From the IMG/VR virus record IMGVR_UViG_2531839665_000016, positions 1-36,695 of that record: a DNA stretch of 36,695 nt. One strand, written 5' to 3'. Source of the stretch: a virus (Duplodnaviria > Heunggongvirae > Uroviricota > Caudoviricetes). The position numbers and the translations under genes were made by a program. The stretch's first letter is position 1. Every line of letters starts with the position of its first letter. The notes below the pieces were generated by a model, which saw only the letters and a program-made list of their open reading frames with translations, did no database searches and had not been told where the DNA came from. This document shows, piece by piece, positions 5,596-36,695 of this stretch.

Positions 5596-7431
5596 TTACC
5601 TGCCAAAGCGCGTATAGCCAACATCATGGCTGACATCAAAACCGCTGGATCGCGTTTCCATAACCCGCATACCCGGAGGCGAATTCACAAAAGAGACCTT
5701 GATCTCACCATCAACTTTTGGCGCAGAAGCTTTGTTAATCATGAAGGGATTCGAGCCTGTGGCATCGGAGGCGTTGTTTGCCTGAGCCGGATCCACCGCC
5801 GGATAAGGAGTGTATCCCCGTGCCGGTATTCCCGTCCCATAAGCATCATAAGCACCCGCGCCCCACTGCGCCGAGTTAATGGCATCGACCGTGTCACCGG
5901 AACTGTCGGTAAACCATTCAATAATCGGCTTCAGCTTATCCCACATATCCTGAAACCACTTAACAACCGGTCCCCAGTTATTGATCACCATCCCCAGCGG
6001 CGACCAGGCAAAAACCTTCTTCAGAAGTTCCCAACCTGCCTCAAAATAAGGACCAATGGTTTCCCAGAGCTTCTTGAAATAAGGTCCGACAACATCCCAG
6101 TTAGTGATAATTAATCCCGCAGCCAGAGCAATCGCCGTCGCAATCATGCCAATCGGCGTCATCGACATAATCCTGCTGACAATACTGATGGCACTGCCCA
6201 CGCCCATCAATCCCAGTTTCAGAATCGCAAGACCGGCAGCAAGCCCGACGACGCCGCGAATAACCCGGGGATTTTCATCCGCAAACTTCGTGAATTTCTC
6301 CCCCAACTCCCCCAGCCATTGTGTGATATTTTTAGCGTCACCAGAAAATGCGCCGCCAATAGCCGCAAGGCCGTTAGTTGCGGTCCCTGTCATTGCCTCC
6401 CACAGGTTGGACAGCGTACCAAGCTGTGCCTGAACACGTTTATTCAGGCTGGCCTGTTTATTCATCTTCTGCTGGATCTGATCGTAACCATCCTTTCCTT
6501 TATCGATCAGAGCATTGACCACCTGAAGGGTTTCGGCATCATCACCAAATATTGCCTTAAGTACACCTGTTCGCTTAACGTCGGTCAGTTTTCGCAGCTT
6601 TGCCAGTTGCCTGAACATGTTATCAAGACCGCCAAAACTCCCTTTGCCGTCAGTAAAATCGAGCTGCACTCCGAGTTTCTGGCGGGCCATGACTTTATTG
6701 ACGTCCCTGATTTTCTTAACGCTTAATCCGGACTGGATAACTTTTCGCAGGGCATTACCTGCCGACTCCCCGTTCATCCCCATCTGATCCATCATGACGC
6801 TGATAGGGGCAAGGCTCTGTGCAGCCTGAAGACCGTCCTTGTTCACCATCTTCAGAACAGAACTGGTTTTAGTGAAGAAGGACAACATGTTGGTATCGTC
6901 AACGCCCAGATAAAACGCCTTCTGGATAGTGTCGAACAGCCCCATCATGTCTTCTGACGCCGTTCCGGTAGCATCCTGCATCTTTGCAGCAAACTCAGCA
7001 GCCGCTTCCGGTGTTTTTTTCAGTTGTACCGCAAGATAAGCTGTCGCTTTACCCACACCACCCAGAATGTTTTCTGCCGGGATCCCCTGACGCACCAGCA
7101 TCTGCATCATGTTCTGGAAATCAGCCGTTGTACCGGGTAGCTGGTTACCCAGGCCAATAGCCAGTTTATTGATGTCCTGAAAGCGCTTTCCGACCTCGCC
7201 GTTCGCATCCATCATGGCGACTTTCAGCCCGGTGGCGGCGTTTTCCTGATCGGCATAAGATTTCAGGGAAAGCGTCAGACCCGCTGCCAGTCCGCCACCA
7301 AGCGCCAGCCCACCCTGTGATGCTTCTTCCGCCTGGCGTTTAAATCCCCGGATTTTCTTTTGCATTTTCGACAGCGCGGGAGAAAGTCTGTCGACACCGG
7401 TGATCAACGCCTTAAGCTCAAATTCAGCCAT
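5596..7431 (-). CDS. Tail tape measure protein
   Basis: 611 aa; Ala/Gly/Leu-rich with a C-terminal hydrophobic segment; located between chaperone and gpN-like genes. Confidence 0.75.
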   Translation of the reverse strand: MAEFELKALITGVDRLSPALSKMQKKIRGFKRQAEEASQGGLALGGGLAAGLTLSLKSYADQENAATGLKVAMMDANGEVGKRFQDINKLAIGLGNQLPGTTADFQNMMQMLVRQGIPAENILGGVGKATAYLAVQLKKTPEAAAEFAAKMQDATGTASEDMMGLFDTIQKAFYLGVDDTNMLSFFTKTSSVLKMVNKDGLQAAQSLAPISVMMDQMGMNGESAGNALRKVIQSGLSVKKIRDVNKVMARQKLGVQLDFTDGKGSFGGLDNMFRQLAKLRKLTDVKRTGVLKAIFGDDAETLQVVNALIDKGKDGYDQIQQKMNKQASLNKRVQAQLGTLSNLWEAMTGTATNGLAAIGGAFSGDAKNITQWLGELGEKFTKFADENPRVIRGVVGLAAGLAILKLGLMGVGSAISIVSRIMSMTPIGMIATAIALAAGLIITNWDVVGPYFKKLWETIGPYFEAGWELLKKVFAWSPLGMVINNWGPVVKWFQDMWDKLKPIIEWFTDSSGDTVDAINSAQWGAGAYDAYGTGIPARGYTPYPAVDPAQANNASDATGSNPFMINKASAPKVDGEIKVSFVNSPPGMRVMETRSSGFDVSHDVGYTRFGR

Positions 7432-17861: not shown

Positions 17862-18385
17862 ATGTACTCCAATGAAGAAACCAGCGAAATAGCTGCCTTC
17901 ATTCGTAGTAAACCTTTTTCATCAACGCAGTAATGGATTCTTTGAAGAGTCGCAATCAATACAACTCACTAATGGAGAGACTTGTCTCACGCATGAGACA
18001 AATTTCCCGTTTGAATTAATGGACACTATAGAGGGACAGAATGCCTTCCTCACTCGAATCACATCAATTAAGGAAGTTCAACATGTTTCATTCCACAAGT
18101 CATCAGGCTGTAATTATGGCAGCATCAGTTTGTGCCACAGACCTTTTCCGCTTCACTTTGTGCCTGATTCATTTCTACCTGACCGGCTCGCTTCTATCTT
18201 TTTAATCCCCGCTTTATCCAAATTGCATTGCCAGAATGCCGACAACAGACTGACATTCAAATCCTGACTACCTCCAATAGTCTGACCGTACACCTATATA
18301 GTTTTAATTTTCATCAATCCATTTAACTATCGTTTAATTGTTGTCACATAGGATTCTGCCGTTTTTAACAATGCAGGATAATAAG

Positions 18386-18679
18386 ATGAAAAAAATGTTG
18401 TTTTCTGCCGCTCTGGCAATGCTTATTACAGGATGTGCTCAACAGACGTTTACTGTTGGAAACAAACCGACAGCAGTAACACCAAAGGAAACCATCACCC
18501 ATCATTTCTTCGTTTCGGGAATTGGACAGCAGAAAACTGTTGATGCAGCCAAAATTTGTGGCGGCGCAGAAAATGTTGTTAAAACAGAAACCCAGCAAAC
18601 ATTCGTAAATGGATTGCTCGGTTTTATTACTTTAGGCATTTATACTCCGCTGGAAGCGCGGGTGTATTGCTCACAATAA
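18386..18679 (+). CDS. bor: Bor lipoprotein (Bor/Iss family)
   Basis: 97 aa from MKKM; lipobox LITGC; near-identical to my recollection of lambda Bor; AGGA Shine-Dalgarno 7 nt upstream; opposite strand to the lysis genes as in lambda. Confidence 0.9.
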   Translation: MKKMLFSAALAMLITGCAQQTFTVGNKPTAVTPKETITHHFFVSGIGQQKTVDAAKICGGAENVVKTETQQTFVNGLLGFITLGIYTPLEARVYCSQ

Positions 18680-20266: not shown

Positions 20267-21442
20267 ATGGATATAACTTGTTTAGAATGTGGCAATGTTC
20301 TTGACGACCCAACTGTAGCTTGCGATAAATGCGGTGCCACGCCTCATGTTGTAGTGCTGGGCAAACAATCGTACTTTCCTATTGGTGCTGTAACAGCAAA
20401 TCTTGAAAAAAATGATTCAAGAGCATTTGATTATCGATTAGGTGAAGTTTGGGATCTAAAAAATGAAGTCACATCTGAATTCATAACCAGAATTGAGAAA
20501 AAATTTAGCCGAAAAAACAAATTTCATAACTTCCTAGACTCAGATCACAACCCTTCATCCATTCCTACGATCCTAAAAAAATACATTAATAAAAATAATG
20601 AATTCATTGATTTATCTAGAGCTATAATAGAGAAGCTTAAACATAATGCTAATAACGAATCGAGAGTTGCCCAACTTCAGGGGGGGAGCGTTGTTTTCAT
20701 CCACTATAAGTCTACCGAACCAGAGGATTTGGGGAAACTTCTAATCGTAATGGTTGATAAACAAAGCGCCTATGACTTTGATTCGGATAAGTTGACCCCA
20801 ACAAGATTAAATCCAATTAATACCGATGCCTTACGGCAGGCTGCGATGTTCGATTTAACTTTATTCGAAGCCAGTTATCCAGAAAACAAGGGTGACTCAT
20901 ATGTACATTTCTTGCAAGGTAAATCTAAAAGCGATTTTTTCAAAGACTCATTAGGTTGCCGACATGATTCGGACAATAAAAGAAGCATTCAGCAATTATT
21001 CAGTGCTATAGATATTTTTGCTAGTAAAAACTCACTCGGTCGTGTACTGCGTGATACTATTGACAATGAAGTTAAATCCTTACTGGAAAAAAAATCAAAA
21101 GATAAACACGGAAATAAGTCCGTTAAGATAGAGGATATTTCAAAAATAATTGACTCATGCCTGACTGATTCACACAAATGTAAGGGAACGTTTGTCGATT
21201 TTGTTAATCTTAATGGTTTCCAGATTGACCCTCAATTTGAACCAACTCCTAAAGCAGCTGAAAGCGCGCTTACAATTGAAGTGGCAGATAACGACAATAA
21301 TTTTAAGTTGAAAATAATGCGTGGAGCTATTGGAGACGAAAAGTCAAATAAGCCTGTAATTCTCACTGACAATAAATGCGAAATTGTGATAAAATTGAGT
21401 CAGGCAAATTATGATGAACTCAAAAGATATAGAGACAGCTAA
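20267..21442 (+). CDS. Zinc-ribbon + YejK/NdpA (NA37)-like nucleoid-associated-protein-family protein; accessory (moron) gene A
   Basis: 391 aa. N-terminal CxxC...CxxC (CLECG...CDKCG). Central region GGSVVFIHY...LIVMV...YVHFLQGKSKSDFFKDSLGC matches my memory of the YejK pattern GGIVLFCHY...YLTFLKG...FFMDFLGA. Lys/Asn-rich, AT-rich coding sequence. Stop overlaps the start of gene B (TAATAATG). Confidence 0.6.
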   Translation: MDITCLECGNVLDDPTVACDKCGATPHVVVLGKQSYFPIGAVTANLEKNDSRAFDYRLGEVWDLKNEVTSEFITRIEKKFSRKNKFHNFLDSDHNPSSIPTILKKYINKNNEFIDLSRAIIEKLKHNANNESRVAQLQGGSVVFIHYKSTEPEDLGKLLIVMVDKQSAYDFDSDKLTPTRLNPINTDALRQAAMFDLTLFEASYPENKGDSYVHFLQGKSKSDFFKDSLGCRHDSDNKRSIQQLFSAIDIFASKNSLGRVLRDTIDNEVKSLLEKKSKDKHGNKSVKIEDISKIIDSCLTDSHKCKGTFVDFVNLNGFQIDPQFEPTPKAAESALTIEVADNDNNFKLKIMRGAIGDEKSNKPVILTDNKCEIVIKLSQANYDELKRYRDS

Positions 21443-21444
21443 TA

Positions 21445-22659
21445 ATGACAATTGCTGATGACTTATCAAGATTAGCGCAGATTATTAACGGAGCCTCAAG
21501 CAGAGTTGAGGGCTACTACACTGTCATAAGTCTTGAAGAAAGCATTGTTATTGTAAATAGTTCTGAAATAATTAGACTGTTACAATCTATAGGTTATAAA
21601 AAGGCAACAACCTGCATCGAAAATAATGAAATTTGGCTAGATCGCCAAGCTTCATCTTGGGATGATGCTATAATTTATGAGAATGTTGAGTCTTTTTGGT
21701 CTAGAGTAAACACCCAAAACGCTCTTCCGAAAAATTATATCATCGGAACGCCGTTAATACTCCCTACTTCTAAGAATGAAAGCATCGAAAAAATCCATAT
21801 TTTCTTTATGTGGAAAGATATCCTTTCATTAATTTCTGATCATCATAACAGTGACTGCTCTGTCTTATTTTTCACCAATGAAGACAAAAGTTATACAGTC
21901 GAACTCACGCATTTTTTACAATATAGCGAGATTAATCGCTTATCGAACTCGTCTCTTAAATATGAAATTATAAAGGAGCTTCTCGACACAATAAAAATCA
22001 ATGATTTACACAAAAGCGAGCGCAAGCTCGTTATACGCTCAGCCATAAACGAAGTATTTAAAGCAAATGGTACGTTCAATTTCTTTGACTTGCTTAACTC
22101 TACTGAACTCGTCAGGAAAAAATATGATGAACTATATGAGATTTACACAAAGAGGTTTTCTGTAAATAAAATTCTTAACGAACTCGATGAGAAAAATCTT
22201 GAGTTCACGAGTAAAATTAACGAATTCATATCATCTAATCAGACAAAAGCATTGACTATTCCCGGTGCATTAATAGCAGCTGGTGGCTTAGTGAAGGCTA
22301 ATGAAACAACCGAAGCAATATTGATTATCGCAGGACTTTGGATGATAAAAAAAGTCAATTACATTTCTATTGAGATATTCAATGAAACATTCGACAACTT
22401 ACGTTCTCGAGTGGAGTCCGCTTTCGATAAGTATTTAAAGTTTGAAGAAAATAAAGAAATCAAAGATAATGCAGATAGTATTAAGAGTAGCATTACAGGT
22501 TTGATTGATAAAGCTAAAAAAAGGATGAGAACTGTTAAATATCTCGCATCAGCCATGTTTTATGGAGGCCTTATTTACGTTGGATATAAACAGTTCCCAG
22601 TCTTTTTTGAAAAATCGGCAGTAAATCTATTTTATTTTTTATGCCATACTATAAGCTAA
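21445..22659 (+). CDS. Hypothetical protein with C-terminal hydrophobic helices; accessory (moron) gene B, putative effector
   Basis: 404 aa, no family recognised. Hydrophobic segments ALTIPGALIAAGGLV...AILIIAGLWMI and YLASAMFYGGLIYVGY near the C-terminus. Translationally coupled to gene A. 3' end overlaps the Q stop convergently by 21 nt. Confidence 0.55.
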   Translation: MTIADDLSRLAQIINGASSRVEGYYTVISLEESIVIVNSSEIIRLLQSIGYKKATTCIENNEIWLDRQASSWDDAIIYENVESFWSRVNTQNALPKNYIIGTPLILPTSKNESIEKIHIFFMWKDILSLISDHHNSDCSVLFFTNEDKSYTVELTHFLQYSEINRLSNSSLKYEIIKELLDTIKINDLHKSERKLVIRSAINEVFKANGTFNFFDLLNSTELVRKKYDELYEIYTKRFSVNKILNELDEKNLEFTSKINEFISSNQTKALTIPGALIAAGGLVKANETTEAILIIAGLWMIKKVNYISIEIFNETFDNLRSRVESAFDKYLKFEENKEIKDNADSIKSSITGLIDKAKKRMRTVKYLASAMFYGGLIYVGYKQFPVFFEKSAVNLFYFLCHTIS

Positions 22660-25539: not shown

Positions 25540-26188
25540 GCCGCCATCTCCCTGACCAGTTTTTCCGCCTGCTGGCGAACCTGCGCCAGAAAGGCCTCAC
25601 CACATGCCTCAAGTTCATCGCGCCCGATGTAGCTGATTGCCGATCCCTTCCAGGTCTTGTCGAAAACAGCAATAGCACCAGCGAAGAAAGCACCTGTCGG
25701 CACCTGCTTCTCGTCCTTCGGTATAAACCAGGCAGGTAGTTCAAAACCAATACGCCCGCGAATAAAAGCAATATGATCTGCATCTTCCGGCCACCACACT
25801 TCGCTGGTAGCTGCTTTGATCAAGAAAACATAGCGCCCGCCTTTATCACGCATGGCACTGGCATGCTTCATGATGTAACGCATGCCGGTGATGTATTGCC
25901 CCTCATGCTGACTGGCGCGGCTGTATGGGGGATTACCAAAGGCAGCACCTTTAAGCTCCGCAAGACGTTCTGACCAGTCATGCGCCAGCGCGTTGTCTTC
26001 CGCCGTGTAATACGCGGCACATTTGGCGTTATCACCGTCAGTGAACAGATCCAGAACAAACGGGCCAAACAGGGTGTTAATTCCCCAGAAAATGTTGTCC
26101 GGCGTGCGCCACTGATCGCCCACTTCCTTCAGTTCATGGGCTGGTTTGTTCCGCAGTTCCACCAGCGCCTGCCAATATTTATTACTCA
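25536..26188 (-). CDS. Phage N6-adenine DNA methyltransferase (Dam-like)
   Basis: NPPY catalytic motif (GNPPYS). Start chosen at MSNKYW (ATG 26188, GGGGG Shine-Dalgarno, abutting the upstream stop) rather than the ORF-track start at 26222. Confidence 0.7.
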
Positions 26189-26683
26189 TTAAGCCCCCAC
26201 GTAATTCCCTGACAGATACCACTCATCACCCGATACAGCGCACTTGCTGCTTTTCCGTAAGCACCGCTCACGGCGCGCCAGAAAATTGTTTCGTTCTGGC
26301 TGGGAGTGGCTTTCACGGAATGCCGCCATCCACACGGTTGCAGCACGACGGTATAAGCCCCTGGACTCCAGTTCTTCAGCCTGGCGGGTCAGGCACAAAA
26401 TTACCCGTGGATCGTTAGTGCCGACATAGAAATTGCGCACAGGTCTGGTTTCACGAACTGGTTGTGGTTCCGGCTCCTGCGCTCTCTCAGTCAGGCGCGG
26501 GAAATGTCTGCGTGTATCTCCTTCACAACGGTGAGCCACACGCCCACTCTGACGTAACTTGCTTGCTGACTGCAGAACGCGCTGCCGTGAGTAACCTGCA
26601 AAAGCATCCGCAATGTCTCCGGAAGTACACCCCGGATGGGCTTCAATGAATTTCTGAACGTCATTTAACAGACTCATGATCAC
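26189..26683 (-). CDS. PerC/Pch-family transcriptional regulator-like protein
   Basis: 164 aa; C-terminal ELESRGLYRRAATVWMAAF resembles the PerC signature (KGLWRRAA..W); N-terminal helix-turn-helix-like region. Confidence 0.45.
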   Translation of the reverse strand: MIMSLLNDVQKFIEAHPGCTSGDIADAFAGYSRQRVLQSASKLRQSGRVAHRCEGDTRRHFPRLTERAQEPEPQPVRETRPVRNFYVGTNDPRVILCLTRQAEELESRGLYRRAATVWMAAFRESHSQPERNNFLARRERCLRKSSKCAVSGDEWYLSGNYVGA

Positions 26684-27621
26684 CCCCTGAATCCTGCCGG
26701 GATCTGGCTGTAGTCCACATTGTCGTAACTGGATTTGAAGTACGGGTCTTCGCGTTTTTCGGTGTACGTGCTTACGGACGGCGATAAGCGCAGGGAAAGC
26801 TCATCCCATTTTTCCCGCAGCTTCGACGGGCTGAGCACGTTACGGCACCAGAACGGATCGCGGCTGACGCGGCTGTACATCTCGCAGATTTGTTTGTGAG
26901 TACGACCATCCTGCACACACATCAGGCGAATTTCGTTTGCCCAGGCTGTCCAGTTCGGTTCTTTGGGACGAACCACCTCGCCGTCACATTCGGCAGCCTG
27001 CTCGTACAGGGCGATGATTTTTTTCCAGAGCCACTGTGCGCAGGTCAAATCATCCTGCGTCCCCCACTGGCGCTTTTTAGGGCTGAATACAACCGCATCA
27101 GGATGGCGAGTTAAAAAATCCTGTTCAGCCGTCTGCGTGTCCGGTTGCGAAGCGTCCGGACGAGAAGGTTTTTTATCTGACGGATCATGTTTTGATTTTA
27201 CTGACGGATCCCCGCCAGATTCTGACGGGTGAAAACCTGCTTTTTTGCCAGATTTCGACGCATCAAATTTTGACGGGTCAGATTTTGATGCGTCAGATTT
27301 TGACGGGTCAGAATCTGACAGTTGAGAAAATGCCGCTGCCTGAAGCTTCGCAACGTTAAGCTGATAAACATTCGACGCATTGCGGTTACCCTGGCGACGC
27401 GCCTTACGCGTTAACCAGCCTTCTGCTTCCAGCCGTGCGATAGCCGTTCTGACGGTACTCATCCCCGCGCCAATCTGACGGGCAATGGTTTCAATTGATG
27501 GCCAGCACACACCTTCGTCATTACTGAAATCAGCCAGGCGGGCCATAATTGCCACGCTGGATAACTTCATGCCTGATGCAGCGCAACCATCCCATACATA
27601 GCCGGTTAATTTAGTGCTCAT
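26680..27621 (-). CDS. Putative replication initiation protein (N-terminal HTH; iteron array encoded in the linker)
   Basis: 313 aa; N-terminal winged-helix-like region; internal repetitive SDSDPSKSDASKSDPSKFDASKSG encoded by DNA direct repeats; occupies the lambda O-equivalent position downstream of cro and the cII-position genes. Confidence 0.5.
   Translation of the reverse strand: MSTKLTGYVWDGCAASGMKLSSVAIMARLADFSNDEGVCWPSIETIARQIGAGMSTVRTAIARLEAEGWLTRKARRQGNRNASNVYQLNVAKLQAAAFSQLSDSDPSKSDASKSDPSKFDASKSGKKAGFHPSESGGDPSVKSKHDPSDKKPSRPDASQPDTQTAEQDFLTRHPDAVVFSPKKRQWGTQDDLTCAQWLWKKIIALYEQAAECDGEVVRPKEPNWTAWANEIRLMCVQDGRTHKQICEMYSRVSRDPFWCRNVLSPSKLREKWDELSLRLSPSVSTYTEKREDPYFKSSYDNVDYSQIPAGFRG
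27176..27321. repeat. Iteron-like direct repeats (about 7-8 copies of a GATTTTGACGGGTCAGA-type unit, 16-20 bp period); candidate phage replication origin
   Basis: Repeats read directly from the sequence: tctgacggatca, actgacggatcc, tctgacgggtga, ttcgacgcatca, ttttgacgggtca, ttttgatgcgtca, ttttgacgggtca, tctgacag. Confidence 0.55.
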
Positions 27622-28851: not shown

Positions 28852-29526
28852 ATGAAAACAATCCATGACATCCGGCGGTCTAACGCCAGAAAACTGAGAG
28901 ATGGTGTTGGCGGGAATTCTTCCTTTGCCACTATGATTGATCGCGAGCCAACCCAGACCAGCAGGTTTATGGGAGATGGTGCTACTAAAAATATCGGTGA
29001 CAGCATGGCACGACACATCGAAAAATGTTTCGACCTGCCTGTAGGATGGCTCGATCAAGAACACCAGACAACGAACATCACAAAAAAACCTGATGTTTCA
29101 ATCACTAATAAACAAATCACATTAGTCCCTGTCATATCATGGGTACAGGCCGGAGCATGGAAAGAAGTTGGATATTCTGAGGTTGATTTGAGCACAGCAG
29201 AAACGTATCCCTGCCCTGTACCCTGTGGGGAAATGACTTATATCTTGCGGGTGATAGGTGATTCAATGATTGATGAGTACCGCCCGGGAGACATGATTTT
29301 TGTCGATCCTGAAGTACCTGCCTGCCACGGTGACGACGTTATTGCATTGATGCACGATACAGGTGAAACCACCTTCAAAAGGTTGATAGAAGATGGGACA
29401 CAGCGTTATCTCAAAGCGTTAAACCCAAACTGGCCTGAGCCTTACATTAAGATCAACGGTAATTGCTCTATAATTGGTACTGTGATTTTCTCAGGAAAAC
29501 CAAGAAGATACAAAATCAAAGCCTAA
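28852..29526 (+). CDS. CI-type prophage repressor (HTH + S24 LexA-like autopeptidase domain)
   Basis: 224 aa; C-terminal GDSM (Ser nucleophile) and TFKRL (Lys) consistent with the S24 Ser-Lys dyad; divergent from cro. Confidence 0.8.
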   Translation: MKTIHDIRRSNARKLRDGVGGNSSFATMIDREPTQTSRFMGDGATKNIGDSMARHIEKCFDLPVGWLDQEHQTTNITKKPDVSITNKQITLVPVISWVQAGAWKEVGYSEVDLSTAETYPCPVPCGEMTYILRVIGDSMIDEYRPGDMIFVDPEVPACHGDDVIALMHDTGETTFKRLIEDGTQRYLKALNPNWPEPYIKINGNCSIIGTVIFSGKPRRYKIKA

Positions 29527-29540
29527 TCAATGTTTATGAA

Positions 29541-29561
29541 CCTGCTTCGGCAGGTTTTTTT
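29541..29561 (+). terminator. Intrinsic terminator downstream of cI
   Basis: Hairpin CCTGC-TTCG-GCAGG followed by TTTTTTT. Confidence 0.6.
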
Positions 29562-29565
29562 ATAC

Positions 29566-29598
29566 TTGACAATGTACCTTTGAGATACATAATGTACC
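29566..29598 (+). promoter_or_regulatory. pL-like early-left promoter with putative operator half-sites
   Basis: TTGACA (29566-29571), 16-nt spacer, CATAAT (29588-29593); AATGTACC direct repeat (29571-29578 and 29591-29598) shares the GTAC core of the cI-cro palindrome. Confidence 0.5.
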
Positions 29599-29699: not shown

Positions 29700-30008
29700 A
29701 TGAATGAGCAGGATTTGAAGCATGTGATCGCATTGTTGCTGGAAGACGCTAAACGTTTGCAGCAGATAGAGCCAAATGCAGGCACTGAGGCCCGTATTTT
29801 GTTAGCAAAACAGGCATTAAAGACTTGCGAGGCGCAAGACCCTGATCGAACCAAGTTCATGAATTTCATGGCTAACACGATCACCCCACTGCCATGCAAT
29901 GGAGAGAGGGTGAGCCGTGTTTATCACGACACAATGGTTAAGGCATTAAGAATCGAGCTTGATGGGCTTAGGCGTAAGATCGTGATGAACAAAATCGTTG
30001 CCAACTAA
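29700..30008 (+). CDS. Hypothetical early-left protein
   Basis: 102 aa; GGAGAG Shine-Dalgarno 6 nt upstream; first gene after the pL-like promoter. Confidence 0.5.
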   Translation: MNEQDLKHVIALLLEDAKRLQQIEPNAGTEARILLAKQALKTCEAQDPDRTKFMNFMANTITPLPCNGERVSRVYHDTMVKALRIELDGLRRKIVMNKIVAN

Positions 30009-30287
30009 GGAAGCAGACGGAAGTAAGCATGCGCTTTGTTCAAATTTGCAGACAAATATATTTGCGTCAACACCAGCACTGTTAGCAATGGAAAAAGTTT
30101 GATCAAGGATTTGTTGGCAGTTCATTGTGCTTTTGAGGATATATCCCTCTGGAATCAGTCTGCAGCAGCTATCGTCAGACTCTTTGATTGTTTTCTGGTA
30201 CAGAAAGTTAAGCATTAATTCTTCAAATTTTTTGGTCTGTTCGGCTGTTGCTTCAAACAGACGAACGTGAACATAAAACTGGTTCAT
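29946..30287 (-). CDS. Hypothetical protein encoded antisense within the early-left operon
   Basis: 113 aa from MNQFYV...; AAGGAAA Shine-Dalgarno 4-6 nt upstream of ATG 30287; AT-rich; 3' end overlaps the preceding plus-strand gene by about 60 nt. Confidence 0.4.
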   Translation of the reverse strand: MNQFYVHVRLFEATAEQTKKFEELMLNFLYQKTIKESDDSCCRLIPEGYILKSTMNCQQILDQTFSIANSAGVDANIFVCKFEQSACLLPSASLVGNDFVHHDLTPKPIKLDS

Positions 30288-30566
30288 TAGGTTTCCTTGC
30301 TGGCTGTGTGAGAACTCCAGCATACCACCGAGCCTGAAGTGGTGAAAAGACAGGCAATAGTTTCATTGCTGTGTGTAGTCCTGGCGGTACCAGTTTGTAC
30401 CCTTGCTTCCGGCTGGTACCGCTCTTTTTACAAAACAGAGAAGAGCATCACCGGACGACGGGCTCATAACCCAATCCATCCGGGCGGCTGCCACCGCAGG
30501 TGTTCTTCTCTGTTTTGTGGAGAAACCAACCGACCTTGCAGGGTCGATATGATGAGGAGCAGCAAA

Positions 30567-30929
30567 ATGGCTAGCGAACGCGGTACTGATGTGCAGGCAT
30601 TTATCGGGGAGCTGGACGGCGGCGTATTTGAAACCAAAATCGGCGCAGTTCTCAGTGAAGTCGCTTCCGGTGTGATGAACACGAAAACCAAAGGTAAGGT
30701 CTCACTCAACCTGGAAATCGAACCATTTGATGAGAACCGTGTGAAAATCAAACACAAACTCTCATATGTTCGCCCGACTAACCGCGGGAAAATTTCCGAA
30801 GAAGACACCACCGAAACGCCGATGTATGTCAATCGCGGTGGGCGCCTGACTATTCTGCAGGAAGACCAGGGACAATTACTGACTCTTGCCGGTGAGCCTG
30901 ACGGAAAACTCCGCGCAGCAGGTCATTAA
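30567..30929 (+). CDS. Hypothetical protein (CPS-53 YfdP-like?)
   Basis: 120 aa from MASERG; GAGGAG Shine-Dalgarno 7 nt upstream. The longer ORF-track start (30339) is rejected. Confidence 0.5.
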   Translation: MASERGTDVQAFIGELDGGVFETKIGAVLSEVASGVMNTKTKGKVSLNLEIEPFDENRVKIKHKLSYVRPTNRGKISEEDTTETPMYVNRGGRLTILQEDQGQLLTLAGEPDGKLRAAGH

Positions 30930-30994
30930 TATCGTTCTTAATTAACTGATTATTTACCTCATCACTGAATATCTTTATATAGTGAGGACTTATT

Positions 30995-31819
30995 ATGTCT
31001 CAGAACTTAGACGCAACCGCAATTAATCAAATCCATGCCCTTATTTCTGCTCAGGGTGTTAATGAAATTATCAGTAAGATTGGTGCCGACGCAGTGGCAT
31101 TACCTGAAAATTTCCGCATTCATGATCTGGAAAAATTTAATTTAAATCGCTTCCGTTTCCGTGGCGCGCTTTCCACTGCCTGCATCGATGACTTTACCCG
31201 TTATTCTAAAGATCTTGCAGATGAAGGCACCCGCTGCTTTATCGATGCCGATAATATGCGTGCCGTCAGTGTTCTTAACCTGGGTACTATTGATGAACCA
31301 GGTCACGCAGATAATACCGCCACTCTCAAACTGAAAAAGACAGCACCGTTCTCTGCACTGTTGTCTGTTAACGGCGAGCGTAACTCCCAGAAGTCACTGG
31401 CAGAATGGATTGAAGACTGGGCCGACTACCTTGTGGGCTTTGATGCTAATGGTGACGCCATTCAGGCAACCAAAGCGGCTGCGGCGATCCGTAAAATCAC
31501 AATTGAAGCGAACCAGACTGCTGATTTTGAAGACAATGACTTCAGCGGCAAACGCTCCCTGATGGAGTCTGTCGAAGCGAAGACCAAAGACATTATGCCA
31601 GTGGCATTTGAATTTAAATGCGTTCCGTTTGAAGGTCTGAAAGAACGTTCTTTTAAATTACGCCTCAGCATTATCACTGGCGATCGTCCTGTACTTGTTC
31701 TGCGCATTATTCAGCTGGAGGCTGTGCAGGAAGAAATGGCTAACGAATTTCGCGATCTGCTTGTTGAGAAATTCAAAGACAGCAAAGTAGAAACCTTTAT
31801 TGGTACTTTCACCGCCTGA
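30995..31819 (+). CDS. yfdQ: DUF2303-family protein (YfdQ-like)
   Basis: 274 aa; length and N-terminus match my recollection of the E. coli CPS-53 prophage YfdQ. Confidence 0.6.
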
Positions 31820-31947
31820 TTTGATTACTGCAAATGCCCCTGCGGGGGCATTTATGGAAACGTAATTAACTCAATAATCGCCGGATGGTGAGGGCTTCCT
31901 TTTACCAGAATTCAGTGCGGTGCAGCGCAAATAACGTGGAGAACAAA

Positions 31948-32484
31948 ATGTCATTTATTAAAACTTTTTCTGGGAAGCATTTTTATTATGACAGGATAAA
32001 TAAAGACGACATCGTTATTAACGATATCGCGGTTTCCCTTTCAAATATCTGTCGCTTTGCAGGACATCTTTCACACTTCTACAGCGTCGCCCAACATGCG
32101 GTGCTTTGCAGCCAGTTGGTGCCGCAGGAATTTGCTTTTGAAGCGTTAATGCATGATGCAACAGAAGCATATTGCCAGGATATCCCCGCACCACTGAAAC
32201 AACTTCTTCCTGACTATAAACGGATGGAAGAAAAAATAGACGCCGTAATCCGTGAGAAATACGGGTTACCTCCTGTTATGAGCACGCCTGTGAAATATGC
32301 CGATCTCATTATGTTGGCAACCGAGCGTCGCGATCTCGGGCTTGATGATGGCTCTTTCTGGCCTGTGCTGGAAGGTATCCCGGCAACAGATATGTTCAAA
32401 GTTATTCCACTGGCACCGGGCCATGCCTACGGGATGTTTTTGGCACGCTTTAAAGAGTTACATACGATACATAAACAATCCTGA
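31948..32484 (+). CDS. yfdR: HD-domain 5'-deoxynucleotidase (YfdR-like)
   Basis: 178 aa from MSFIKTF; HD motif (H...MHDATEAY); follows the yfdQ-like gene as in CPS-53. Confidence 0.65.
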   Translation: MSFIKTFSGKHFYYDRINKDDIVINDIAVSLSNICRFAGHLSHFYSVAQHAVLCSQLVPQEFAFEALMHDATEAYCQDIPAPLKQLLPDYKRMEEKIDAVIREKYGLPPVMSTPVKYADLIMLATERRDLGLDDGSFWPVLEGIPATDMFKVIPLAPGHAYGMFLARFKELHTIHKQS

Positions 32485-32524: not shown

Positions 32525-32785
32525 ATGAGGTTATCAAAAATGCTTCAAATGCTGACACTTGAAGAATGGGCTTCTGAAAAATACAGAAGTAATCCTCCAA
32601 GTGTGTCCACATTGCGTCGTTATGCTAAGCAGAATTTATTTTGTCCACCGGCCATGAAACAAGGCCGGTTATGGCGAGTGCGTGAGGACGCCGAGTTAGT
32701 TGGAGAGCTGGTAACACCAGTAATTAAGAAAAATGACTCATTACTTTTGCAACGGATTTTGAGTGATGGCAGCCAGACCGCGTAA
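32525..32785 (+). CDS. xis: Excisionase (Xis)
   Basis: 86 aa; MLTLEEWA...KQGRLWRV excisionase-like motif; overlaps the int start. Alternative start at 32540. Confidence 0.65.
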   Translation: MRLSKMLQMLTLEEWASEKYRSNPPSVSTLRRYAKQNLFCPPAMKQGRLWRVREDAELVGELVTPVIKKNDSLLLQRILSDGSQTA

Positions 32786-33893
32786 AAATAATGTTTCGGT
32801 CCCTAACTTATATCCGCTTTATAGTAGGAAAGTAAATAAAGTCTATTGGCGGTATAAGCATCCAGTAACAGGGAAATTTCATGCGCTAGGAACGAACGAA
32901 ACCGAAGCCATCGCTATTGCCACTGAAGCCAATACGCGACTGGCTGAACAAAGAACTCGGCAGATTCTGGCCATCAGTGACAGGATAGCAACCAGCAAAG
33001 GGAAAGCAATCACAACGTCAACCTGGTTAGATCGCTACCAAGCGATCCAGGATGACCGACTGAAAAGTGGTGATATAAGACTCAACACTTATAAGCAGAA
33101 AGCCAAACCAGTATCCTTACTTAGGGAACGAGTAGGAATGAAGTTGATCTCAGCCGTTGATGTCAGAGATATAGCACAATTGCTTGACGAGTATATCGCT
33201 GCCGGGCAGCCGAGAATGGCGCAAGTCGTAAGGTCTGTATTGATCGATGTATTTAAGGAAGCACAGCATTATGGCGAAGTTCCGCCAGGGTATAACCCTG
33301 CTCTTGCGACGAAGCAACCCAGACGGAAAATCACCCGTCAACGCCTCAGCCTCGAAGAATGGAAAAAAATCTTCGATATCGCAGATGCCAGTCATCGTTA
33401 CATGGGAAATGCCATGCTCCTAGCATTGGTCACTGGACAGCGTTTGGGGGACATATCTAAAATGAAATTCAGCGATATTTGGGATGACCATCTACATGTC
33501 GAACAGGAAAAGACTGGAAGCAAAATCGCAATTCCTCTTTCTCTTCGCCTCAATACGATTAACTGGAGTTTACGCGATATAATAGCCCGCTGCCGTGACT
33601 ATGCAGTCAGTCCATACCTAGTGCATTTTTTCCGTTCAACTTCACAAGCAGAACGTGGGGCACAGGTTAAATCCAATACATTGACGATGAACTTTAGCAA
33701 AGCGCGAGACTTGGCCGGAATTGATTGGGGTGATGGAACTCCAGCAACTTTCCATGAACAAAGATCTTTATCTGAGCGCCTTTATAGGGAACAAGGGATT
33801 GATACGCAAAAACTACTCGGACATAAATCTCCTAATCAGACAGCTAGATATCATGATGATCGTGGAAAAGATTGGGTAACTCTAGCAATTTGA
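32763..33893 (+). CDS. int: Tyrosine integrase, lambda Int family
   Basis: 376 aa; C-terminal LLGHKSPNQTARYHDDRG resembles the lambda Int catalytic Tyr region (GHKSDTMASQYRDDRG). Confidence 0.85.
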   Translation: MMAARPRKNNVSVPNLYPLYSRKVNKVYWRYKHPVTGKFHALGTNETEAIAIATEANTRLAEQRTRQILAISDRIATSKGKAITTSTWLDRYQAIQDDRLKSGDIRLNTYKQKAKPVSLLRERVGMKLISAVDVRDIAQLLDEYIAAGQPRMAQVVRSVLIDVFKEAQHYGEVPPGYNPALATKQPRRKITRQRLSLEEWKKIFDIADASHRYMGNAMLLALVTGQRLGDISKMKFSDIWDDHLHVEQEKTGSKIAIPLSLRLNTINWSLRDIIARCRDYAVSPYLVHFFRSTSQAERGAQVKSNTLTMNFSKARDLAGIDWGDGTPATFHEQRSLSERLYREQGIDTQKLLGHKSPNQTARYHDDRGKDWVTLAI

Positions 33894-34027: not shown

Positions 34028-34993
34028 TCATTTCTTAAATTTAAGAATTTCTTTTAAGGCTTCTACTATATTTTTATCCCCATCCATGCTAATTTTCTCC
34101 TTCTCAAGAGAAACCGTAGTCTGCCCTTTTTCAAGAACAAAATTACGTTCTGTAGCCATGAGATTTTTAATAACCTCACCCATTAAGTCTTCGTTTCTAA
34201 TGCCCTTAAGAAACTTTATCGCCAAAACTTTGGAATCGATATTGGTAAGCTCATTTTGAAAATACTTGACCTCATCAAAACCATTTTTGTACAACTTCAA
34301 GAAGAAATAAGCAAATAGTTCAACGACAATTACAAATGATAATTTGGGGGCCATGTGAAGTATATATTCAAGCTTATCATTTGTGTTAATAGCATTTGTA
34401 ACTGAATATCCAAGGTAAAGTATCCCACAAAAAGCAATAAATGCACCTAAAACCAGATTAACCCCACCACGTCTATTTAATCTATTTATTTCATTTTCTA
34501 AACGATATACAATATCATTATAGTGTTTACTAATTTCTATTTGATTTCTAAACGAATTTATATCATTTTTCAAACTTAAATCTGCAGCCAAGAGAGTATT
34601 GCCTACAATCTTTTTTTTAGCATTATCGATCAACTCTTGCCTTTCTTTTGATGTGAGTAAAACACCATTTAAATCTTTCGAATCATTTGTAACTAGTTGA
34701 TTAAACTCTTGCTTTAAGGAGTCTAATTCTGACTTTAACTCTTCATATGAGTTAACATTCTTGTTTTTACTTTCACCTATTCCTTTATTAACATAATTTA
34801 ATAAAAATGCTGCCATAAAAGTTAAAATCAGAGTTGCAATAAAGAAACTATTTTCATCTTGAAGTATTTTAGCAACAGTGGAAAAATAACTTACGAGAAG
34901 AGGCTGAGCATTATAAAGCCCCATTCCTAACAAAACTGCAATTGCCGTACCTAAAACGAACCTTACTTCTTGTCTTTTTAGTAACCTATTCAT
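34028..34993 (-). CDS. Membrane protein with 4 predicted TM helices (2+2) and central coiled coil; candidate effector
   Basis: 321 aa; hydrophobic helices VRFVLGTAIAVLLGMGLY, FFIATLILTFMAAFLLNYV, VNLVLGAFIAFCGILYLGY, LSFVIVVELFAYFFLKLY; AT-rich. Confidence 0.55.
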   Translation of the reverse strand: MNRLLKRQEVRFVLGTAIAVLLGMGLYNAQPLLVSYFSTVAKILQDENSFFIATLILTFMAAFLLNYVNKGIGESKNKNVNSYEELKSELDSLKQEFNQLVTNDSKDLNGVLLTSKERQELIDNAKKKIVGNTLLAADLSLKNDINSFRNQIEISKHYNDIVYRLENEINRLNRRGGVNLVLGAFIAFCGILYLGYSVTNAINTNDKLEYILHMAPKLSFVIVVELFAYFFLKLYKNGFDEVKYFQNELTNIDSKVLAIKFLKGIRNEDLMGEVIKNLMATERNFVLEKGQTTVSLEKEKISMDGDKNIVEALKEILKFKK

Positions 34994-35555: not shown

Positions 35556-36695
35556 CTAAAATACAACTTGCTTCCTTAGTAAATCACCTCTAGCATTTGA
35601 GTAATATTCAGTCGAATTGCCAGTAACTTCCCGGAGTACTTCTGTTACAAGGTTATTTAGTATTCCCGTAAGTTTAAGAAACTCTCCATATGAATTAGGT
35701 TTCTCAAATATCTTTCTGGTACCGTTCGGCACATCGAGCTGCATTGCAGCATCATGATCCTGGGCTAAGTGATTTAGCCAGCGGTGAGTCTCAACAAGTA
35801 CAGCAAGTTCATAGTATGTACTATGACGGAGATTATTAGCATCTGCATGGTACATTAGTGAAGCAATATCATAGCTGCTTAGATCAATACTCGAACCTTC
35901 GTCTCCACTGTCTGCTTTCAGGGTTTTGAGCATGCGAATTGATTTTCTTAATCCACCATTGCATTGATCGCATTTGTCTTTGATACGTTGCATGTGGAGG
36001 AACGGTTCATTGTAGATACGCTCTCGTTTGTTTTTATCAATTATGGTAACTCCACGATGTTCTTCTTTTTTTGTGAGTTGGTACTCTTTCGTATCCCACC
36101 ATATGCCTGGCACTACATCAACTTCTCTTTGAAGACTCCCCCCCGTTATTCTCAAGGACTTGGCGTTATTATCGTCAACCTGAGCAGCAGGAAATGTCAT
36201 TTTTAGAGCATCTCGAGCTGCACGCCTAAGTTCAATGATGACGTCTCGGCCATCTTTCTCAGCTGCACTATAGCTGCCAACTCCACCGCTATCATACATA
36301 AGCATCTGAGTATCAATAATTAAAAGATCTACATCACTGAAACCTTTGATATGGATATCTAGGGGAACAGAACCTTGTACCCGAAAATCTAGGTTTAGGT
36401 CTAATTTCTTAGTCAGCTGATTTTCAATACGATACGCGGTTTCGAATGAGATCTCTGTATAGCGGGGGTCAACTGGTTGCATCGCACCAATGACATACCG
36501 GATAGCTGAATCGTCTCTTCCTCTAGACTCCCAACTTTCATTAAGCTCAAGAGCATCTTCAAGCAATGCATATTTTTCAAGGCCATCATATCTTTGATTA
36601 CTCATTGATTCTGTGGCTACTCGCAACTGATCATATGTCCCTTTACGACGTGACTTCATGCGTTCAATACGCGAACTATATGATGAATTAGACAT
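35556..36695 (-). CDS. cGAS/DncV-like nucleotidyltransferase (CD-NTase-like); start coincides with window edge
   Basis: 379 aa; pol-beta NTase motifs by my residue count: G108-S109 (QGSVPLD), D121-x-D123 (SDVDLLI), D193 in EVDVVPG (h-D-h-h-P). This spacing matches what I recall for DncV-type cyclases. AT-rich. The ATG is at the last bases of the window, so the N-terminus may be incomplete. Confidence 0.55.
   Translation of the reverse strand: MSNSSYSSRIERMKSRRKGTYDQLRVATESMSNQRYDGLEKYALLEDALELNESWESRGRDDSAIRYVIGAMQPVDPRYTEISFETAYRIENQLTKKLDLNLDFRVQGSVPLDIHIKGFSDVDLLIIDTQMLMYDSGGVGSYSAAEKDGRDVIIELRRAARDALKMTFPAAQVDDNNAKSLRITGGSLQREVDVVPGIWWDTKEYQLTKKEEHRGVTIIDKNKRERIYNEPFLHMQRIKDKCDQCNGGLRKSIRMLKTLKADSGDEGSSIDLSSYDIASLMYHADANNLRHSTYYELAVLVETHRWLNHLAQDHDAAMQLDVPNGTRKIFEKPNSYGEFLKLTGILNNLVTEVLREVTGNSTEYYSNARGDLLRKQVVF

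Follow-up and report, generated by a model that had tools for sequence, protein, structure and literature searches.

The question raised by this locus is what three consecutive early genes of a lambdoid prophage, yfdP, yfdQ and yfdR, do for the phage, and whether they form one functional unit. The genes lie in a 36,695-nt stretch of DNA from a virus of the Caudoviricetes (IMG/VR record IMGVR_UViG_2531839665_000016), referred to here as the window. An original prediction, made from the bare sequence, had described a plus-strand block like yfdP-yfdQ-yfdR of the Escherichia coli K-12 prophage CPS-53. It proposed that an HD-domain 5'-deoxynucleotidase with a conserved but uncharacterised DUF2303 partner could manipulate host nucleotide pools or counter nucleotide-based defences. 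We assessed this proposal using sequence, profile and structure comparisons, gene-neighbourhood counts and the published literature. We put at roughly even odds (a probability of about 0.5) the reading that we are dealing with an early module directed at host replication and at nucleotide metabolism, in which YfdR would be a hydrolase that also occupies DnaA domain I and YfdP-YfdQ would be a separate complex acting alongside it.

We compared the three products with those of K-12 MG1655 by BLASTP. YfdP (120 aa) was identical to its K-12 counterpart at 118/120 positions (98%, E 3e-89), YfdQ (274 aa) at 271/274 (99%) and YfdR (178 aa) at 164/176 (93%, E 5e-129). The divergence of YfdR was mostly restricted to its C-terminal ~15 residues, at a mosaic joint. 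At the DNA level, positions 30548-32460 of the window showed 96.2% identity to CPS-53 over 1913 bp, a span that begins 19 bp ahead of the yfdP start and ends 24 bp short of the yfdR stop. Gene order and spacing were shared with CPS-53 (also called KpLE1), where yfdS and yfdT follow. The yfdP stop lies 65 bp upstream of yfdQ, and a 128-bp spacer (31820-31947) separates yfdQ from yfdR. A further in-frame ATG at 31885 would extend yfdR to an open reading frame (ORF) of 199 aa; it is not the RefSeq start. Judged by sequence, the three genes are orthologues of K-12 yfdP, yfdQ and yfdR, far beyond chance, and the block had been placed correctly with exact coordinates.

The block is an ordinary prophage early-gene block that has already been catalogued and published. 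The same three-gene cluster occupies the same operon position in SfV (orf30-32), ST64B (sb35-37) and LLS (gp37-39); SfV showed 96-97% DNA identity over most of the block, and we observed no substantial difference between it and the window. The cluster has been described as fairly common in early-left operons of lambdoid phages, with a putative 5'-nucleotide phosphatase gene and two genes of unknown function (PMC12315714). A 2.3-kb stretch covering the block was found in 3030/5426 complete E. coli genomes, 2442 of which matched 80% or more of its length, in most cases at 95-99% identity. RefSeq names the products across E. coli as YfdP, YfdQ family protein, and HD family hydrolase or 5'-deoxynucleotidase. 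Among phages, the block was present in 56 records, including SfV, SfIV, Stx2c-converting phages and mEp460. The order yfdP, yfdQ, yfdR was present in every one of 72 near-identical viral contigs from E. coli whose flanks were long enough. Beyond yfdR, 53 of them had yfdS and/or yfdT and 19 had neither; the yfdR-xisE-intE arrangement of the window was seen in three.

We next considered which of the three genes stay together over larger distances. We collected 77 loci (68 from one-genome-per-species contigs, 4 viral contigs and 5 annotated phage records) and searched all their ORFs iteratively; the loci are not phylogenetically independent, and recombination (Rec) genes were sought in them with a limited seed set. 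All 75 loci in which both ends were present had a YfdP homologue immediately upstream of YfdQ on the same strand, with a median gap of 52 bp. A first locus set had given the pairing in 71/73 loci, both exceptions being truncated. YfdR followed YfdQ in 55/77 loci, nearly all of them labelled Enterobacterales; four yfdR-bearing loci were labelled otherwise (Martelella, Chryseobacterium, a Geobacteraceae metagenome-assembled genome), and these may come from contaminated or misassigned assemblies. When we looked at ten distant DUF2303 loci, YfdP was paired with YfdQ in all ten and YfdR was present in none. Distant paired loci include those of Xanthomonas phage MET23-P3 (YfdP 32% and YfdQ about 38% identical), Hahella, Vibrio phage 24E30.2, Thalassomonas phage BA3, Psychrobacter phage Psymv2 and Stx2a phage PA2.

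The DUF2303 protein had been predicted as the conserved partner of the HD protein, and this does not hold in general. On the evidence of gene order, the side-by-side position of the HD enzyme and DUF2303 is lineage-specific, because YfdR occurs in none of the ten distant DUF2303 loci and the host spectra of YfdR and YfdQ differ; the conserved partnership is that of YfdP with YfdQ. These data suggest that the YfdP and YfdQ products most likely work together. A subdivision of the block into yfdPQ and yfdR also fits three local observations: a hairpin in the yfdQ-yfdR spacer, an IS1 element inside the same spacer in E. coli strain JB2 (otherwise 100% identical to the 2.3-kb stretch), and the 'yfdPQ operon' of K-12. 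Published work on K-12 regards the pair as an operon, and SrsR binds the spacer upstream of it (PMC9181523). The hairpin is possibly a partial terminator or RNA-stability element that divides the yfdPQ unit from yfdR; the fold of the whole 136-nt stretch around the spacer gave a z of only -1.3.

The neighbours of the pair in distant phages are recombination and DNA-processing genes. We observed Erf and a RecE-like exonuclease in BA3; a Gam-like protein, RecT, an exonuclease and a single-stranded DNA-binding protein (SSB) in PA2; a YqaJ-domain protein, a DnaQ-like exonuclease and SSB in Vibrio phage 24E30.2; and a recombinase, an exonuclease and SSB in MET23-P3. A recognisable Rec gene lay within 5 kb in 8/22 loci without yfdR compared to 1/55 loci with yfdR.

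We then assessed the enzyme assignment of YfdR. Residues H50, H69-D70, E73, D78 and D119 were conserved in at least 98% of 53 homologues (43-94% identity). YfdR shares with YfbR the HD superfamily and the metal and substrate motif H...HD..E....D...D. The YfdR motif HDATEAYCQDIPAPLK parallels what we take to be the YfbR active-site motif, the YfbR-like alignment itself being sub-threshold. YfdR matched phrog_318, 'deoxyribonucleoside 5' monophosphate phosphatase' (E 1e-106), and K-12 RefSeq names it 5'-deoxynucleotidase. Its closest solved relative was PDB 2gz4 (Atu1052, an HD protein of unknown function; E 4e-15). Matches to curated families fell below their cut-offs: 23.8 bits for Pfam YfbR-like (cut-off 25.9; aligned residues 62-125 of the 199-aa ORF), 17.2 bits for Pfam HD_3 (cut-off 22.5) and 20.1 bits for the NCBIfam 5'-deoxynucleotidase YfbR equivalog NF003009 (cut-off 122). 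The YfbR structure 2paq gave E 0.94, and precomputed Pfam assignments were empty for nearly all YfdR homologues. According to the summary of Zimmerman 2008 in PMC4776307, nucleotide affinities of K-12 YfdR lie far below YfbR's, and its function 'remains elusive'. We assign YfdR as an HD-superfamily hydrolase with an unmistakable HD signature and an intact active site, and as an orthologue of K-12 YfdR, not of YfbR. Of the predicted HD-domain 5'-deoxynucleotidase, the HD active site stands; the narrower enzyme name is weakened by the sub-threshold scores and the low affinities.

YfdR relatives were found in 334 phage records, mostly of Bacillus, Caulobacter, Rhizobium, Vibrio and Pseudomonas phages, and the family is widespread in phages without DUF2303. 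YfdQ occurred in 184 phage records with a host spectrum unlike that of the YfdR relatives. We also compared YfdR with the T5 deoxynucleoside-5'-monophosphatase Dmp, by annotation an early phage phosphatase of deoxynucleoside monophosphates (dNMPs). Dmp is a possible functional analogue; it had no Pfam match and no detectable sequence similarity to YfdR, and was rejected as a homologue (BLASTP E > 3).

The DUF2303 assignment of YfdQ was confirmed over the full length of the family profile (PF10065; 306 bits, cut-off 26.6; E 2.5e-91; profile positions 2-269 of 269) and by phrog_210 (E 1e-118). The DUF2303 family comprises at least 1457 clusters at 50% identity, nearly all of ~270 aa, and YfdQ proteins are acidic, with a median isoelectric point of 5.1. 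When 69 diverse DUF2303 members were scanned with Pfam at E <= 1, no second family recurred among them. Near-invariant YfdQ residues include H104, E46, E140, D141, Q132, R52, R56, R166 and R223, a set that would suit a ligand or catalytic site better than a purely structural protein. YfdP matched phrog_204 (E 5e-49), and its homologues carry the precomputed PF27127, a newer Pfam family; the Pfam copy used in our scan returned no family for YfdP. The MET23-P3 homologue of YfdP (positions 6532-6906 of that phage) is labelled 'translation elongation factor' in GenBank and looks mis-annotated; its best PDB sequence matches were insignificant (Lon protease, E 0.2).

To place the two proteins structurally, we searched AlphaFold2 models with Foldseek against a PDB library that extends to 8 April 2026 and does not include entry 9o7m. 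The YfdQ model (predicted local distance difference test, pLDDT, 73.7) had no match in this library at E <= 0.001, and its matches in BFVD were other DUF2303 proteins only, one of them from a Gordonia phage. The YfdP model (pLDDT 69.4) gave weak, non-significant matches to NTF2-like and CaMKII-hub structures (E >= 0.03, template-modelling score about 0.3).

By sequence, YfdQ has a solved relative in 9o7m, entitled 'YfdQ Protein', with 274 aa and 36 chains. This entry matched the window YfdQ at E 1.8e-44 (aligned residues 16-273, about 38% identity) and is 98.8% identical to YfdQ of MET23-P3, a phage in which the YfdP homologue lies directly upstream, with no adjacent YfdR and no annotated integrase in the record (55 features, many hypothetical). 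The DUF2303 protein is therefore not as uncharacterised as had been supposed, given this entry and the genetic data described below. The 36 chains point to a large homo-oligomer or polymer of YfdQ. Since the example chain carries the label 'C', two or more further chains must be something other than YfdQ. These did not correspond to MET23-P3 YfdP or to any of 25 other early-region proteins searched, and the concatenated MET23-P3 early proteins (4093 aa) matched only generic SSB, exonuclease and TROVE relatives in the PDB. Our literature search returned no publication on 9o7m, and a preprint on cryo-electron microscopy of a Xanthomonas podovirus did not mention YfdQ.

The pairing suggests that YfdP-YfdQ, and not the HD enzyme, is the real unit. 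Only tentatively do we propose more: the two genes may be an old early module of phages, an obligate pair whose synteny extends from lambdoid prophages of E. coli to phages of Xanthomonas, Vibrio and Psychrobacter and which has relatives by fold in actinophages. Such a module would combine a fold absent from the PDB library searched with a very large YfdQ homo-oligomer and would represent a new class of factor acting on the host or phage DNA replication or recombination machinery.

The published genetics concern the K-12 genes. Noguchi and Katayama found that yfdQ-yfdR-yfdS-yfdT, in multicopy, suppressed the over-initiation of hda-185; suppression needed yfdQ, yfdR and either yfdS or yfdT, and the same combination in multicopy inhibited initiation at oriC (PMC4776307). 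K-12 YfdR bound DnaA domain I (Phe46) and hindered binding by DiaA and DnaB (PMC4776307), a result accepted in PMC12122000. This binding, with inhibition of initiation upon overexpression, was the sole mechanistic result for YfdR that we found in the literature. For YfdQ, a preprint reports that plasmid-made protein yielded plaques of a resident phage. The proposed occupation of the Phe46 surface resembles the mode of other DnaA domain I binders that block initiation, through competition with DiaA or as Bacillus subtilis SirA; lambda P, which acts on DnaA domain III, is listed among comparable initiation blockers. Unlike these, YfdR is an unrelated HD hydrolase, and its effect appeared only when it was overproduced together with YfdQ and YfdS or YfdT.

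Carried over to the window, these results suggest the following course. The early-left arm would be transcribed after induction. YfdR, 93% identical to the K-12 protein studied, would bind DnaA domain I at Phe46 in competition with DiaA and DnaB and, with YfdQ, could dampen new initiations at oriC, as multicopy expression did in K-12. Its HD site may hydrolyse nucleoside or deoxynucleoside monophosphates at low affinity, as in vitro work on K-12 YfdR is summarised to report. YfdP-YfdQ might act on replication or recombination proteins or intermediates, as its gene neighbourhoods suggest.

Several observations weigh against this reading. The window encodes an orthologue of the DnaA-binding YfdR and has yfdQ, and it has neither yfdS nor yfdT, one of which the multicopy phenotype required; yfdP was dispensable for that phenotype. 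Deletion of yfdQRST gave no replication or hydroxyurea phenotype, YfdQ, YfdS and YfdT showed no stable binding to DnaA or YfdR, and the authors caution that the effect may be an overexpression artefact (PMC4776307). The YfdR family is spread over phages whose hosts have very different DnaA. Its wide occurrence in Bacillus, Caulobacter and Rhizobium phages raises the possibility that YfdR binds DnaA incidentally and was ancestrally an enzyme and nothing else. On the side of the pair, the acidity of YfdQ gives little support to plain DNA binding, no significant PDB fold match was obtained with the models of YfdQ and YfdP, both of only moderate confidence (pLDDT 74 and 69), and a recognisable single-strand annealing protein (SSAP), exonuclease or SSB gene lay within 5 kb in only 9/77 loci.

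An alternative close to the original prediction is that YfdR is mainly a phosphatase of dNMPs or other nucleotides that reshapes host pools or destroys defence nucleotide signals, with DUF2303 as its partner. We regard this as possible yet doubtful. The strongly conserved catalytic residues and the names given by RefSeq and PHROGs agree with it, the presence of the family in many unrelated phages points to an enzymatic core function, and a cyclase of the cyclic-oligonucleotide-based anti-phage signalling system (CBASS) in the same prophage indicates that nucleotide signalling is present in this host. It fits poorly with the failed 5'-deoxynucleotidase equivalog (20 bits versus 122) and with the absence of YfdR from all ten distant DUF2303 loci. 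A role in countering nucleotide-based defences was left unsupported: no PADLOC family matched YfdP, YfdQ or YfdR at E <= 0.1, and our literature search found no report of an anti-defence role for any of the three. We know of no YfdR activity on cyclic oligonucleotides. Pool manipulation and anti-defence do not mutually exclude an action of YfdR on DnaA, and nothing beyond the conserved active site speaks positively for them.

The gene neighbourhoods raise a different possibility, that YfdP-YfdQ is an unrecognised recombination or DNA-repair accessory (end-binding, annealing or fork-processing) which replaces the Rec module in lambdoid phages without one. The block does fill the early-left Rec slot in the window and in LLS/ST64B-type phages, where the limited seed set recognised no Rec genes, and the distant pairs adjoin SSAP, exonuclease and SSB genes; in addition, chains A and B of 9o7m are not YfdQ and are possibly nucleic acid, the other early phage proteins not being in the entry. 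These points must be set against the profiles, as hhalign comparisons of YfdQ with RecT, Erf and the MET23-P3 recombinase, and of YfdP with the Gam-like protein, gave no similarity (probabilities <=1.4%), and against the acidity of YfdQ and the missing fold match. Phages that possess a full Rec module can carry the cluster as well, and a recombination role has been judged unlikely (PMC12315714). A hidden recombination function thus fits the neighbourhoods and not the profiles, and we consider both it and a replacement of the Rec module improbable. Finally, the block could be functionless baggage retained by linkage only, as the silent yfdQRST deletion in K-12 (PMC4776307) and the IS1 element in the JB2 spacer would allow. 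Such an explanation is very hard to reconcile with three intact ORFs kept at 95-99% identity in more than 2400 E. coli genomes, with synteny of the pair maintained down to 30-40% protein identity across orders, and with the conserved YfdR catalytic residues; we give it almost no weight.

For the window itself, the finding matters little: the genes are near-identical to those of K-12, thousands of genomes already carry annotations for them, and the literature covers the cluster as well as the binding of YfdR to DnaA. The residual value is comparative. YfdP-YfdQ is among the commoner phage early-gene pairs without a known biochemical function, and its strict pairing suggests that YfdP and YfdQ should be studied together, apart from YfdR. 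The 36-chain structure of YfdQ is best read in the light of this pairing.

The window is an SfV/ST64B-like lambdoid prophage at the icd site. It is essentially identical to a prophage of strain JB2 that adjoins icd, the e14 attachment region. On the plus strand, the S24 cI-like repressor is followed by a hairpin, a promoter-like site, a 102-aa ORF, yfdP, yfdQ, yfdR, xisE and intE (Table 1); the minus strand carries a cro-like gene, the cII-like ymfL, replication genes and late genes. The predicted early-left placement is borne out by this position and orientation, with yfdPQR flanked by the cI-like repressor and xis-int and encoded on their strand. The candidate early-left (PL) promoter is a consensus match, between which and yfdP lies ymfI on the opposite strand; we identified no N-like gene, and promoter-like sites in the region overall were not more frequent than in shuffled sequences.

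Table 1. Positions of the yfdPQR genes and of other features of the window.
Feature	Position	Strand	Evidence or remark
Bor/Iss-family lipoprotein gene	18338-18679	+	Pfam Lambda_Bor E 2e-30; iss in JB2
Two-gene low-GC insert	20267-22659	+	GC 0.34-0.38
yfdO, yfdN, yfdM homologues	25923-27048	-	homologous to K-12
313-aa helix-turn-helix replication gene	26680-27621	-	
Four iteron-like boxes	27263-27318		inside the 313-aa replication gene
cI-like repressor	28852-29526	+	Peptidase_S24 E 1.5e-26
Terminator-like hairpin with T-run, just after the repressor gene	29538..29557	+	consensus scan
Sigma-70-like site TTGACA-16-CATAAT, candidate PL-type promoter	29566..29593	+	consensus scan (11/12, best of the region); candidate by inference only
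102-aa ORF, first of the candidate early-left transcript	29700..30008	+	phrog_12693 E 1e-70; hypothetical in JB2
ymfI, between the 102-aa ORF and yfdP	29946..30323	-	NCBIfam YmfI_phage E 4.8e-48, above cut-off
yfdP	30567..30929	+	K-12 YfdP (98%); phrog_204; PF27127; GAGGAG Shine-Dalgarno 7 nt upstream of the ATG
yfdQ, DUF2303	30995..31819	+	PF10065; K-12 YfdQ (99%); PDB 9o7m
GC-rich hairpin AAATGCCCC-TGCG-GGGGCATTT without T-run, in the yfdQ-yfdR spacer	31832..31853	+	sequence, fold
yfdR, HD-domain phosphohydrolase (putative)	31948..32484	+	K-12 YfdR (93%); HD residues; phrog_318; PDB 2gz4
xisE-type excisionase, directly downstream of yfdR	32525..32785	+	Pfam Exc E 7.7e-12; JB2 annotation
intE-type tyrosine integrase, end of the early-left arm	32763..33893	+	Arm-DNA-bind_1 E 2.7e-37; Phage_integrase E 5.7e-19
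321-aa protein beside the CBASS cyclase	34028-34993	-	
CBASS-type cyclase	35556-36695	-	PADLOC PDLC00772 E 6e-137; window ends inside the locus

Compared to K-12 CPS-53, the window is without yfdS, yfdT and torI, and tblastn found no YfdS or YfdT homologue anywhere in it. An e14-type xisE-intE pair of the icd site follows yfdR directly, and an intact immunity region, lost in K-12, lies upstream of the block. In the window, the homologues of yfdM, yfdN and yfdO lie apart from yfdPQR and on the other strand. Because the two groups stand at separate places here, CPS-53 is a deletion derivative of an SfV-like phage that has lost the immunity region (about 27.3-30.5 kb of the window).

The replication region contains four copies of TCA(G/A)AT(T/C)(T/C)TGA at 15-bp spacing inside the helix-turn-helix gene, an arrangement like the iterons of an origin. 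The same four boxes are present in the K-12 yfdO/yfdP 'spacer', where they are reported to form the strongest genomic binding site of SrsR (YgfI; PMC9181523). In the window they are absent upstream of yfdP and stand in the replication gene instead; the K-12 SrsR site may be a relic phage origin.

Just beyond intE, we observed the CBASS-type oligonucleotide cyclase and, beside it, a candidate membrane effector: a 321-aa low-GC (0.30) protein that has about four hydrophobic segments and matched neither Pfam nor PADLOC. The cyclase locus occupies the int-icd slot in which, as we take it, K-12 e14 carries ymfD-ymfE-lit. The prophage appears to carry defence cargo.

The low-GC insert lies between the Q antiterminator and the lysis genes and encodes a 391-aa nucleoid-associated protein of the NA37 family (Pfam E 1e-23) and a second protein, of 404 aa, that matched neither Pfam nor PADLOC. 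Possibly the two genes are a cargo or defence pair of an uncharacterised kind. The JB2 annotation places an IS5-family element, ISKpn26, here, which apparently splits the first gene. The Bor/Iss-family lipoprotein gene adjoins the lysis cassette.

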